A DNA stretch of 25,844 nucleotides, from positions 1 to 25,844 of the forward strand of contig JAZOLP010000093.1 in assembly GCA_045653225.1 (NCBI GenBank), read 5' to 3'. The translations under genes and the position numbers were made by a program. Below the pieces are notes generated by a model. The model ran no database searches. It had not been told where the DNA came from and saw only the letters and a program-made list of their open reading frames with translations. Shown here one piece after another: positions 14,372-15,862 of this stretch. Position 1 is the stretch's first letter. Every line of letters begins with the position of its first letter. The DNA is from Bacilli bacterium. GTDB taxonomy: Bacteria > Bacillota_I > Bacilli_A > ML615J-28 > CAG-313.

Positions 14372-15862
14372 ATGTTAACTTATTTACCACTTATTCTTAT
14401 TTGCCTTGGCGTAATTGCCATTATAGCTATCCTTGCTTCTGGATATGTTAAGGCTTCGCCAGACACAGCTTATGTTATTTCTGGTCCAAAGAAAAATCCT
14501 CGTTTCTTAATCGGTAAAGCGGGAATTAAAATCCCATATATCGAGAAAAAAGATAATCTGACTTTGGAACTTATCCCAATTACGGTATCAACCGCAAAGC
14601 CAGTTCCTACATTAGATTATATTGACTTATCCGCAGATGCTATTGCTAATATTAAGATTGGTTCTGACCCAGAATCATTAAAATTAGCAGCACAGAACTT
14701 CTTAAACAGATCATCTGAATATATTGGTGTAGTTGCAAGAGAAGTGTTAGAAAGTAATATGAGAGAAATTATCGGTAGTATTGATTTAAAAACTCTTGTA
14801 AATGACAGACAGGCATTCTCAAATAAAGTTAAAGAAAATGCTGAACCAGATTTAAGAAAAATGGGACTCGAAATTGTAAACTTTAACGCACAGAACTTCT
14901 CTGATGAACTTGGCGCAATTTCAAATCTTGGTATTGATAACTTAACAAAGATTAAAAAAGAAGCTGCTATTGCTAAAGCAATAAACGAAAAAGAAATTTC
15001 TATTGCTCAAGCTCAGGCTCGTAAAGAAGCTAATGATGCACAGGTGCAGGCAGATTTTGCAATTGCTGAAAAGAATACAGAACTTGAAATTAAGAAAGCG
15101 GAATTAAAAAGAAGCGCTGACGCAGAAAAAGCTCGTGCGGACGCCGCTTATGAAATCCAGGCTCAGGAACAGAGAAAGAGTATTGAGATTGCTACAGCGG
15201 ATGCGGATATCGCAAAGCAGGAAAAAGAAATTGAAATTCAGGACAAAGAAATTGCTATTAAAGAAAAAGCTCTTGACGCGGATGTAAAGAAAAGAGCTGA
15301 TGCTGAAAAGTACGCCGCAGAAAAGAAAATTGAAGCTCAGTTCTTTGCAGATCAAAAGCAGGCTGACGCTGAAAAAATCGCAAGAGAAAGAAAAGCTGAA
15401 GCTGACAGATACGAAGAAGAACAGAAAGCAGAAGCAGTAAAAGCAAAAGCTATTGCTGAAGCGGAAGCTATGAAAGCTAAGTCAGAAGCTCAAAAAGTTG
15501 CTATGGAAAATGAAGCTGCTGGTATTAGAGCAAAAGGTGAGGCTGAGGCTGAAGCTATTAAAGCTAAAGCACTTGCAGAAGCAGAAGGTATTTTAAAGAA
15601 AGCAGAAGCTCAGAAAGAAATGGGCGAAGCTTCTAAAATGGAAATGTTATTTGCTATCTTACCTGAAATGGTTAAGAACGCGGCAGCTCCTTATGAAAAA
15701 GTTAACTCAATTACAATGTATGGTGAAGGAAACCAGGCTGCGCTTACAAAAGATATTATGCAGACAGTTCAGCAGGCTTCTGATGGACTTGGTATTGATT
15801 TAAAGAATGTTGTTAGCGGTATCCTTGGCGGATTTGCAGCTAACGGTTTAAACAATAATTAA
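14372..15862 (+). CDS. flotillin-like SPFH (band 7) domain protein with N-terminal membrane anchor and long EA-rich coiled coil (YqiK/FloT-like)
   Basis: An N-terminal TM segment (LPLILICLGVIAIIAILASG) is followed by an SPFH-like block. A long run of AEAEA / KAKA repeats follows (...AEKARADAAYEIQAQEQRK..., GEAEAEAIKAKALAEAEGILKKAEAQKE), typical of flotillin domains. Confidence 0.8.
   Translation: MLTYLPLILICLGVIAIIAILASGYVKASPDTAYVISGPKKNPRFLIGKAGIKIPYIEKKDNLTLELIPITVSTAKPVPTLDYIDLSADAIANIKIGSDPESLKLAAQNFLNRSSEYIGVVAREVLESNMREIIGSIDLKTLVNDRQAFSNKVKENAEPDLRKMGLEIVNFNAQNFSDELGAISNLGIDNLTKIKKEAAIAKAINEKEISIAQAQARKEANDAQVQADFAIAEKNTELEIKKAELKRSADAEKARADAAYEIQAQEQRKSIEIATADADIAKQEKEIEIQDKEIAIKEKALDADVKKRADAEKYAAEKKIEAQFFADQKQADAEKIARERKAEADRYEEEQKAEAVKAKAIAEAEAMKAKSEAQKVAMENEAAGIRAKGEAEAEAIKAKALAEAEGILKKAEAQKEMGEASKMEMLFAILPEMVKNAAAPYEKVNSITMYGEGNQAALTKDIMQTVQQASDGLGIDLKNVVSGILGGFAANGLNNN

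Follow-up and report, generated by a model that had tools for sequence, protein, structure and literature searches.

What would a bacteriophage do with a flotillin? In bacteria, flotillins organize membrane microdomains, with effects on proteolysis, secretion, cell-wall synthesis and differentiation, and we know of little work on how phages handle host membrane organization in long infections. The question is raised by a gene at positions 14372..15862 (plus strand) of a 25,844-nucleotide contig (JAZOLP010000093.1, GenBank assembly GCA_045653225.1), which is referred to here in its entirety as the window. The gene, which has an ATG start and a stop codon within these coordinates, encodes a protein of 496 amino acids (aa) that is very probably a full-length, membrane-anchored flotillin of the SPFH superfamily. 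The best overall explanation of the locus, in which we place about even confidence, is that a phage carries a functional FloT-type flotillin that forms a membrane scaffold and supplements or replaces the flotillin of the host. The particular mechanism favored here, a scaffold sustaining the host membrane during infection, is tentative and rather less probable than the general statement.

The assignment to the flotillins, first made in a note that relied on the DNA letters alone (hereafter, the original prediction), is borne out by profile hidden Markov model (HMM), PDB-sequence and fold searches. In the profile search proposed there as a check, both Pfam models scored above their gathering cut-offs: Band_7 (PF01145) with 49.9 bits (cut-off 23.6; aa 50–216), and Flot (PF15975) with 31.2 bits (cut-off 27; aa 389–461). 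A phmmer search of all PDB chains matched human flotillin-1 and flotillin-2 from the complexes 9bq2 and 9l3g collinearly (E-value 2.7e-47), aa 28–334 and 376–455 of the phage protein corresponding to flotillin-1 residues 5–312 and 307–386. For the fold search, the protein was modeled as a monomer with AlphaFold2 (AF2) from a 30-sequence multiple alignment (mean predicted local distance difference test score, pLDDT, 69.6); single-sequence AF2 gave an unusable SPFH part, with a pLDDT of about 30. In the Foldseek comparison of this model with the PDB, the same flotillin complexes ranked first (E-value 6e-20), followed by stomatin, HflK/C, prohibitin, erlin, QmcA and the major vault protein (MVP).

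Four parts can be recognized in the protein, all encoded on the plus strand. The N-terminal transmembrane helix of the original prediction is present as an anchor at aa 5–22 (14384..14437), delineated by hydrophobicity and by an AF2 helix at the same residues; the hydrophobic segment, aa 5–23, is the only one in the protein (Kyte-Doolittle 19-residue mean with a peak of 2.9; sole segment above 1.6). Membrane insertion is a prediction, and because lysines follow the anchor helix (K27, K40 and K41), the bulk of the protein is likely to be cytoplasmic by the positive-inside rule. The predicted SPFH-like block also stands, as an SPFH/Band_7 domain at aa 25–188 (14444..14935) defined by the Pfam match, by an AF2 alpha/beta domain at aa 25–178 (pLDDT 83–94 across aa 61–170) and by the match to the Band 7 domain of flotillin-2 (1win; target-normalized TM-score 0.71, root-mean-square deviation 3.3 Å). 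Next comes an Ala/Glu/Lys-rich helical hairpin, aa 189–416 (14936..15619), delimited by composition, by two long AF2 helices (aa 189–295 and 304–416) and by the flotillin-1 alignment. Its composition (26% A, 17% E and 16% K, 60% for the three combined) and the runs KAKA, AEAEA, EAEAEA, KAKA and AEAE within aa 357–405 agree with the EA-rich coiled coil described originally, although its length is 228 aa rather than the approximately 250 aa claimed. We consider this hairpin to be the counterpart of the coiled-coil wall in flotillin cages. The DNA repeats underlying the EA/KA runs are only short and weak, and the two minus-strand open reading frames (ORFs) that overlap the EA-rich stretch within the flotillin gene (15104–15355 and 15258–15446) we take to be by-products of codon composition, not genes. 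The C-terminal domain, aa 417–496 (15620..15859), is defined by the Pfam Flot match and by invariant columns; it contains the conserved motif ITMYG.GN, which phmmer aligns with the C-terminal region of flotillin-1, and AF2 models a helical region here as well. The gene is preceded by a Shine-Dalgarno sequence, AGGAG (14360..14364, plus strand), read directly from the DNA 7 nt 5' of the ATG and directly 3' of the stop codon of the preceding gene (14357–14359).

The NCBIfam equivalog model for FloT, NF058507, gives 248.5 bits, below its 700-bit cut-off. The cellular flotillins of Lachnospiraceae, with 294 bits, fail as well, and other phage copies score 227–298 bits; because genuine cellular flotillins fail too, the shortfall reflects distance from the reference FloT and not a defect of the protein, and the cut-off appears to delimit close orthologs of the founding FloT of the model, not the wider family. 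We accordingly classify the protein as a long, FloT-type member of the flotillin family and not as a FloT equivalog.

The phage setting of the gene, also claimed originally, is supported by the window's own genes, by synteny with viral contigs of IMG/VR (the most telling line), by PHROG matches in the flanks of those contigs and by the presence of homologs of the window's MVP-like protein in huge phages. The window has a GC content of 33%, with all ORFs taken as genes on the plus strand, and encodes a PIN-PhoH protein (PHROG 2765), an RNA ligase (PHROG 968), a DenV-like glycosylase and an Amidase_2 endolysin, the latter located after large unknown proteins. The window contains no housekeeping genes, and the tRNA and Rfam scans of it were empty. 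No virion hallmark genes were found inside the window, which is the main remaining gap in the phage assignment, and a megablast search with the region 12000–18000 against 50,697 phage records produced no match. Exact-sequence look-ups likewise returned no record of the flotillin, MVP-like or PhoH proteins of the window.

A pattern scan of IMG/VR identified 199 viral contigs encoding a relative of this flotillin; 80 of these were fetched, and the locus counts given here refer to the fetched set. In about 38 of the 80 loci, many of them on contigs of 100–200 kb, a phosphoesterase gene lies directly upstream of the flotillin gene, and most of these also carry the kinase and PhoH; with L008 and L011 counted, the phosphoesterase precedes the flotillin in 39 loci, with no window-homologous ORF in between. 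The fullest gene order is (MVP-like)–NADAR–phosphatase–Zn-ribbon–kinase–phosphoesterase–flotillin–(141-aa protein)–PhoH–(endolysin). Identity to the flotillin of the window falls as low as 46% in syntenic loci, and the relatives with 66–98% identity are all found in phage-like synteny. The flanks of these loci produced strong PHROG matches, including phrog_1735 (879 bits), RNA ligase, endolysin and NrdD.

Within the window, the flotillin gene is the last of six closely packed or overlapping ORFs that lie between two terminators. The upstream boundary of the unit is the terminator after the MVP-like gene (12296..12319, plus strand; folding energy −13.9 kcal/mol, z −4.0), and the unit is closed by an intrinsic terminator at 15873..15899 (plus strand; 11-bp stem and U-run, −13.6 kcal/mol, z −4.3). 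Beyond it, before the next gene (16042–16467), is a promoter-like site at 15984..16012 (plus strand; TTGAAA, 17 nt, TG-n-TATAAT; 11 of 12 positions), which, with its extended −10 element, is the best promoter-like match in the scanned region and marks that gene as a separate unit; this call is based on match quality and position only. A hairpin with a T-run, different in sequence, also follows the flotillin stop codon immediately in L002, L008 and L064, so that a terminator directly 3' of flotillin is found in four lineages in all. The totals of such sites do not exceed those in shuffled controls (21 promoter-like sites versus 19.3, and 3 terminators versus 2.4), and no enrichment was seen for the extended −10 motif TGNTATAAT; hence, the operon boundaries are drawn from the stability and position of the hairpins and from their recurrence in relatives. 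With this evidence, the claim that flotillin ends a kinase/phosphatase operon holds.

The first three ORFs of the unit (12381..13282, plus strand), known from their translations, produced no match in family searches. The first encodes an unknown 132-aa protein. It is followed by a 77-aa protein (12781–13014) with two hydrophobic segments and an acidic tail; homologs of this small membrane protein outside the window were not detected, and it could be a partner of the flotillin. The third is a CxxC...CxxC zinc-ribbon protein, listed as ORF 12947–13282 but probably starting at an internal ATG near 13004, the gene for which is conserved in 32 loci. The two genes directly preceding flotillin are better understood. 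One encodes a P-loop kinase (13279..13764, plus strand; Pfam AAA_33, 5e-18) that weakly matches PSTK, T4 Pnk and bacterial Pnkp and adjoins the phosphoesterase and flotillin in about 35 loci. The other encodes a divergent 200-aa metallophosphoesterase (13757..14359, plus strand), recognized by the motifs DLHFGHD, GDL, GNHD and HGHTH in its translation; its NCBIfam matches (YfcE, PdeM and a DS9 phosphoesterase) are all below threshold, and a sequence search of the PDB yielded nothing significant. Kinase followed by metallophosphoesterase is the domain order of the NCBIfam model of bacterial Pnkp, in which the kinase matches positions 8–133 and the window's 222-aa phosphatase matches positions 227–324. 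Taken together with the RNA ligase of the window, the kinase and the phosphoesterase seem to resemble nucleic-acid end-healing enzymes more than protein-signaling ones.

In the phage lineage, the flotillin is under purifying selection. The ratio of nonsynonymous to synonymous substitution rates (dN/dS) is 0.036 (dS 0.32) in the comparison with L089 (93.5% nucleotide identity), and 0.16 and 0.13 in comparisons with L008 (79%) and L002 (69%), respectively, where dS is near or past saturation. The alignment of 30 homologs contains 115 invariant columns, including the ITMYG.GN motif, in which I447, M449, G451 and N454 are all invariant. As a separate observation, the window and its 98% identical relative have Thr71 and Ser73 (14582–14590) in the first SPFH strands, positions at which Asp71 and Lys73 are kept in at least 90% of the homologs, the 80% and 66% identical relatives among them.

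Among cellular proteins, the flotillins of Lachnospiraceae (Acetatifactor and others) and of Ruthenibacterium come closest, with 52–61% identity; no cellular copy above 61% was found in a set of one genome per GTDB species. In the two cellular loci that were inspected, flotillin stands alone among housekeeping genes, with no NfeD neighbor. In a neighbor-joining tree (100 bootstraps), in which bacterial sampling is biased towards the query and the internal nodes are weak (21–41%), the window groups with L008 and L003 (bootstrap 99%), and the main syntenic phage clade is recovered as well (83%). A further node (81%) unites the window clade with bacterial and several additional viral sequences, leaving the main phage clade outside, and the copies from L009 and L010 fall within a bacterial Lachnospiraceae subclade (98%). 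L009 and L010 are IMG/VR contigs of 114 and 150 kb, respectively. The nesting of these two copies points to recent host-to-phage transfer, and the topology as a whole suggests, as a lead only, several transfers between hosts and phages or allele replacement in place.

Two groups of genes around the flotillin bear on what it might do. The first, at 2186–5717, is a contiguous set for four-step salvage of nicotinamide to NAD+, consisting of an isochorismatase/PncA-like protein, NAPRTase, a NadD-like nucleotidyltransferase and the NAD synthase NadE, with a NADAR-domain gene directly after it; this looks like a phage island for NAD+ replenishment and reversal of ADP-ribose modification. The second is a scattered RNA-repair-like toolkit (98–472, 5763–6926, 8084–8752 and 13279–14359) that comprises a Thg1 C-terminal-like ORF, the RNA ligase, a lambda-phosphatase/ApaH-like enzyme, the P-loop kinase and the divergent metallophosphoesterase. 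The proximity of flotillin to NAD or RNA-repair genes recurs elsewhere: in L016-type contigs (many of about 160 kb), the neighbors of flotillin are PncA, a NAMPT-like gene and NadE; in L009, it is near a phage-type RNA ligase and a kinase; and in the T5-like Vibrio phage KIT04, it is four genes from an RNA ligase. These surrounding genes, NADAR included, may provide host-maintenance or counter-defense functions, a context into which membrane maintenance by a flotillin would fit.

On the preferred reading, that of a phage-borne scaffold, the flotillin would be transcribed last in the six-gene unit together with the polynucleotide-kinase-like protein and the metallophosphoesterase. Judging from homology, its single N-terminal helix would insert the protein into the cytoplasmic membrane of the host, with the SPFH domains on the inner leaflet, and the EA-rich helices and the C-terminal motif would, on the model of flotillin-1/2 and other SPFH proteins, drive oligomerization into a ring- or dome-shaped assembly enclosing a membrane microdomain. 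As the phage shuts down its host, the phage flotillin might then supplement or replace the host flotillin, with membrane fluidity, envelope-stress tolerance and protein clients (for example, FtsH-type proteases, secretion and the cell-wall machinery) kept working until the progeny are complete. The roles put forward originally, such as sequestration of host complexes, organization of an egress site, cooperation with the MVP-like protein or interaction with FtsH-like proteases, are likewise conjectural. Several observations weigh against this scenario. Neither PHROGs nor PADLOC-DB contains a family that matches the flotillin (nor did PADLOC-DB match the MVP-like protein or the phosphoesterase; its only marginal matches, with E-values of 1e-3 to 7e-3, were to the kinase and the downstream 141-aa protein). 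Known flotillin partners, namely NfeD, FtsH and PspA-like proteins, are not encoded nearby. The D71T/K73S substitutions allow for some divergence from the function of the host protein. Co-transcription with RNA-repair enzymes offers no obvious mechanistic link to membranes, and the counter-defense reading of the neighborhood is itself interpretive. The lack of NfeD, for which Pfam scans of 29 of the window's ORFs, all of at least 60 aa, gave no match, has no bearing on membership in the flotillin family, given that the two closest cellular loci lack it as well.

The strongest competitor, though an unlikely one, is that the phage flotillin acts as a hijacker or dominant-negative subunit, co-assembling with or displacing the host flotillin, which is about 60% identical, and re-programming its clients (for example, FtsH-dependent proteolysis, or sensor-kinase signaling for sporulation and biofilm formation in spore-forming Lachnospiraceae) instead of merely maintaining the membrane. 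The protein is indeed close to the flotillins of the likely host, the placement of L009/L010 and of the window clade relative to bacterial sequences suggests that the gene has been renewed repeatedly from hosts, which a need to stay compatible with host partners would predict, and nearly invariant positions of the SPFH domain are substituted in the window. However, the tree is a neighbor-joining one with weak internal nodes and a biased sample of bacteria, a similar pattern could arise from faster evolution in phages, and overall conservation resembles that of a normal flotillin.

A somewhat less probable proposal is that the protein serves in membrane protection, lysis timing or superinfection exclusion: the scaffold might keep the membrane stable, or mend it, in the face of abortive-infection effectors or of holins that trigger prematurely, or an altered membrane might block DNA injection by a second phage. 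The neighbors that can be read as counter-defense genes (NAD+ salvage, NADAR and RNA repair) are compatible with this idea, as are the reports that, in B. subtilis, the outcome of phage infection is influenced by a bacterial dynamin that has a genetic link to flotillin (PMC8844932) and that PspA is linked to the membrane by SPFH proteins (PMC8581546). The flotillin gene, however, is located 8.7 kb from the endolysin gene, outside any lysis cassette, the PADLOC search matched it to no known defense or anti-defense family, and the argument is wholly one of guilt by association.

The possibility that the gene is a passenger, that is, a recently captured but useless host gene, or host DNA mis-assigned to a phage, is largely refuted, and we consider it very improbable. 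Its best named homologs are bacterial, and the missing virion hallmarks and the empty megablast search could be taken in its favor. Against this, no cellular copy in the set of one genome per GTDB species exceeds 61% identity, whereas the 66–98% identical relatives share phage-like synteny; the gene order is kept across dozens of IMG/VR contigs, many of 100–200 kb, whose flanks produce strong PHROG matches; dN/dS values are 0.04–0.16; and cellular copies are found among housekeeping genes, of which the window has none. Finally, a tape-measure-like coiled coil or virion scaffold that resembles flotillin only through biased composition, of which a central region with 60% A+E+K might be suspected, can be dismissed with near certainty because the SPFH domain is matched independently of the helices and the alignment is collinear through all parts, and there is in addition the N-terminal anchor, the lack of any PHROG structural family match and the metabolic and RNA-repair neighbors; thus, neither of the two outcomes named originally as fatal to the flotillin assignment, a missing SPFH domain or a mere coiled-coil structural fragment, was observed.

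A bolder synthesis, which is speculative and rather unlikely, would make the flotillin a conserved working part of a counter-defense or host-takeover island in a large clade of big, Clostridia-infecting gut phages. These phages would build their own SPFH microdomains, which might shield the membrane from abortive-infection effectors or capture host membrane clients, and would re-acquire the gene repeatedly from their hosts because compatibility with the host flotillin or its partners is needed. If true, membrane-raft scaffolding would be a new class of phage auxiliary function. Short of that, a full-length flotillin under strong purifying selection in a conserved module of many large gut phages makes it a testable proposition that some phages bring their own membrane scaffold, and the diverged natural variants, 46–98% identical, could be used to study flotillin assembly. 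Given that the gene family is well known and the phage function is inferred only, the immediate significance is moderate.

Other parts of the window deserve brief mention. Directly after the flotillin unit, at 16042–16467, with its own strong promoter-like site, is the gene for a 141-aa protein without a family match; homologs are located downstream of flotillin in 21 loci, including L002/L003 (66% identity relative), at distances from the flotillin stop codon that range from 126 bp to 4.7 kb. At 8825–9820, a papain-family (C1) cysteine peptidase is fused to an S-layer-homology (SLH) domain, which suggests that the cell wall of the host is SLH-anchored and raises the possibility of an envelope-acting phage enzyme. 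Three large ORFs at 18012–23583 (676, 523 and 545 aa) match no PHROG and have almost no database matches: tblastn found no match for the 676-aa ORF and a single weak one for the 545-aa ORF, the last of the three, which has an ice-binding-like beta-roll. From their position before the endolysin, these may be tail-fibre or receptor-binding proteins.

The MVP-like gene (9842–12289) encodes an 815-aa protein with Vault_3 and MVP_shoulder domains and a weak Band_7 match. The original prediction placed it two genes upstream of flotillin as a possible partner, but this overstated their closeness: the gene lies five ORFs upstream and, having its own terminator, belongs to a separate transcription unit. 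Homologs with 37–44% identity are present in the huge-phage genomes LR756500, LR756501 and LR756503, and others with about 51% identity in 9 IMG/VR loci, so that 9 of the 80 flotillin loci carry an MVP-like gene. The first viral MVPs, from human-gut Caudoviricetes grouped with phages of Bacillota, were described in a 2023 preprint (bioRxiv 10.1101/2023.11.10.566534) that does not mention flotillin; an MVP is a different protein from flotillin and, in the window, is part of a different unit, although the solved MVP structures are weak matches to the flotillin model in the fold search. In L064, a related phage contig, the gene at 1–1509, just before the MVP-like gene (2088–4577), matches PHROG 850, annotated as “RNA-binding protein” (437 bits); an RNA-binding partner beside a homolog of a vault protein may be worth a look.

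How, then, does the flotillin of the window compare with known systems? Phage flotillin and SPFH genes as such are already known, and none of the annotated examples has a demonstrated function. The proteins BBL19217.1 of Vibrio phage KIT04 and WOZ57345.1 of the gut phage csAssE-Sib are annotated as “flotillin family protein,” and short Band-7 proteins are encoded by Rhizobium phage Pasto, Vibrio phage pVa5, Streptomyces phage StarPlatinum and giant viruses. The annotated viral flotillin/SPFH proteins share only 25–29% identity with the protein of the window, and this over the N-terminal third, and belong to unrelated phage lineages with unrelated hosts. Most viral SPFH proteins are short and stomatin- or HflC-like, unlike full flotillins; BFVD contains many short Band-7 proteins of phages and giant viruses and only one full-length flotillin-like model. 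The phage Perkons was also considered and set aside: it integrates into the floA gene of its host and is not a flotillin carrier. Full-text literature searches retrieved no functional study of a phage-encoded flotillin; the reason for a phage to carry an SPFH gene “remains unclear” in one report (PMC13239085), and another likewise calls the role of a phage gene of the SPFH/flotillin type unclear (PMC13384950). What we think is new here is how widely and constantly flotillin occurs across a clade of large gut phages, with a fixed position as the last gene of a kinase-phosphoesterase unit.

Among the other SPFH assemblies, HflK/HflC-FtsH, stomatin, prohibitin, erlin and QmcA-YbbJ also have an SPFH fold that leads into a helical wall (Foldseek E-values of 1e-7 to 1e-10), and they provide a precedent for an SPFH assembly that encloses a membrane protease. 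These cages are far weaker matches than flotillin and lack the Flotillin C-terminal domain, and the window has no FtsH or NfeD partner gene. The eukaryotic flotillin-1/2 complexes (9bq2 and 9l3g) align collinearly with the phage protein (identity about 28%) from the SPFH domain across the two long helices to the C-terminal motif, and this collinear homology makes them the template for the proposed cage-forming mechanism. The matched eukaryotic chains have no evident transmembrane helix, residue 5 of flotillin-1 being aligned to residue 28 of the query. In eukaryotic flotillins, a hairpin together with acylation provides the anchor, and two paralogs make up the hetero-oligomeric complex; by comparison, the window has only one flotillin gene.

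The closest counterparts are the bacterial FloT-type flotillins, such as B. subtilis FloT/YuaG and those of Lachnospiraceae. They belong to the same length class (about 490–520 aa) and have an identical order of parts, from the N-terminal anchor through the SPFH domain and the EA-rich helices to the Flotillin C-terminal domain. The Lachnospiraceae proteins are 52–61% identical to the window copy across 94–100% of the length and, like it, have no adjacent NfeD (in the two cellular loci) and score below the strict FloT equivalog cut-off. Unlike these bacterial flotillins, the window copy lacks 4 residues ahead of the last helix, carries the D71T/K73S substitutions, is encoded by a phage in an operon with a kinase and a phosphoesterase, and belongs to a clade of its own with 66–98% identical relatives.

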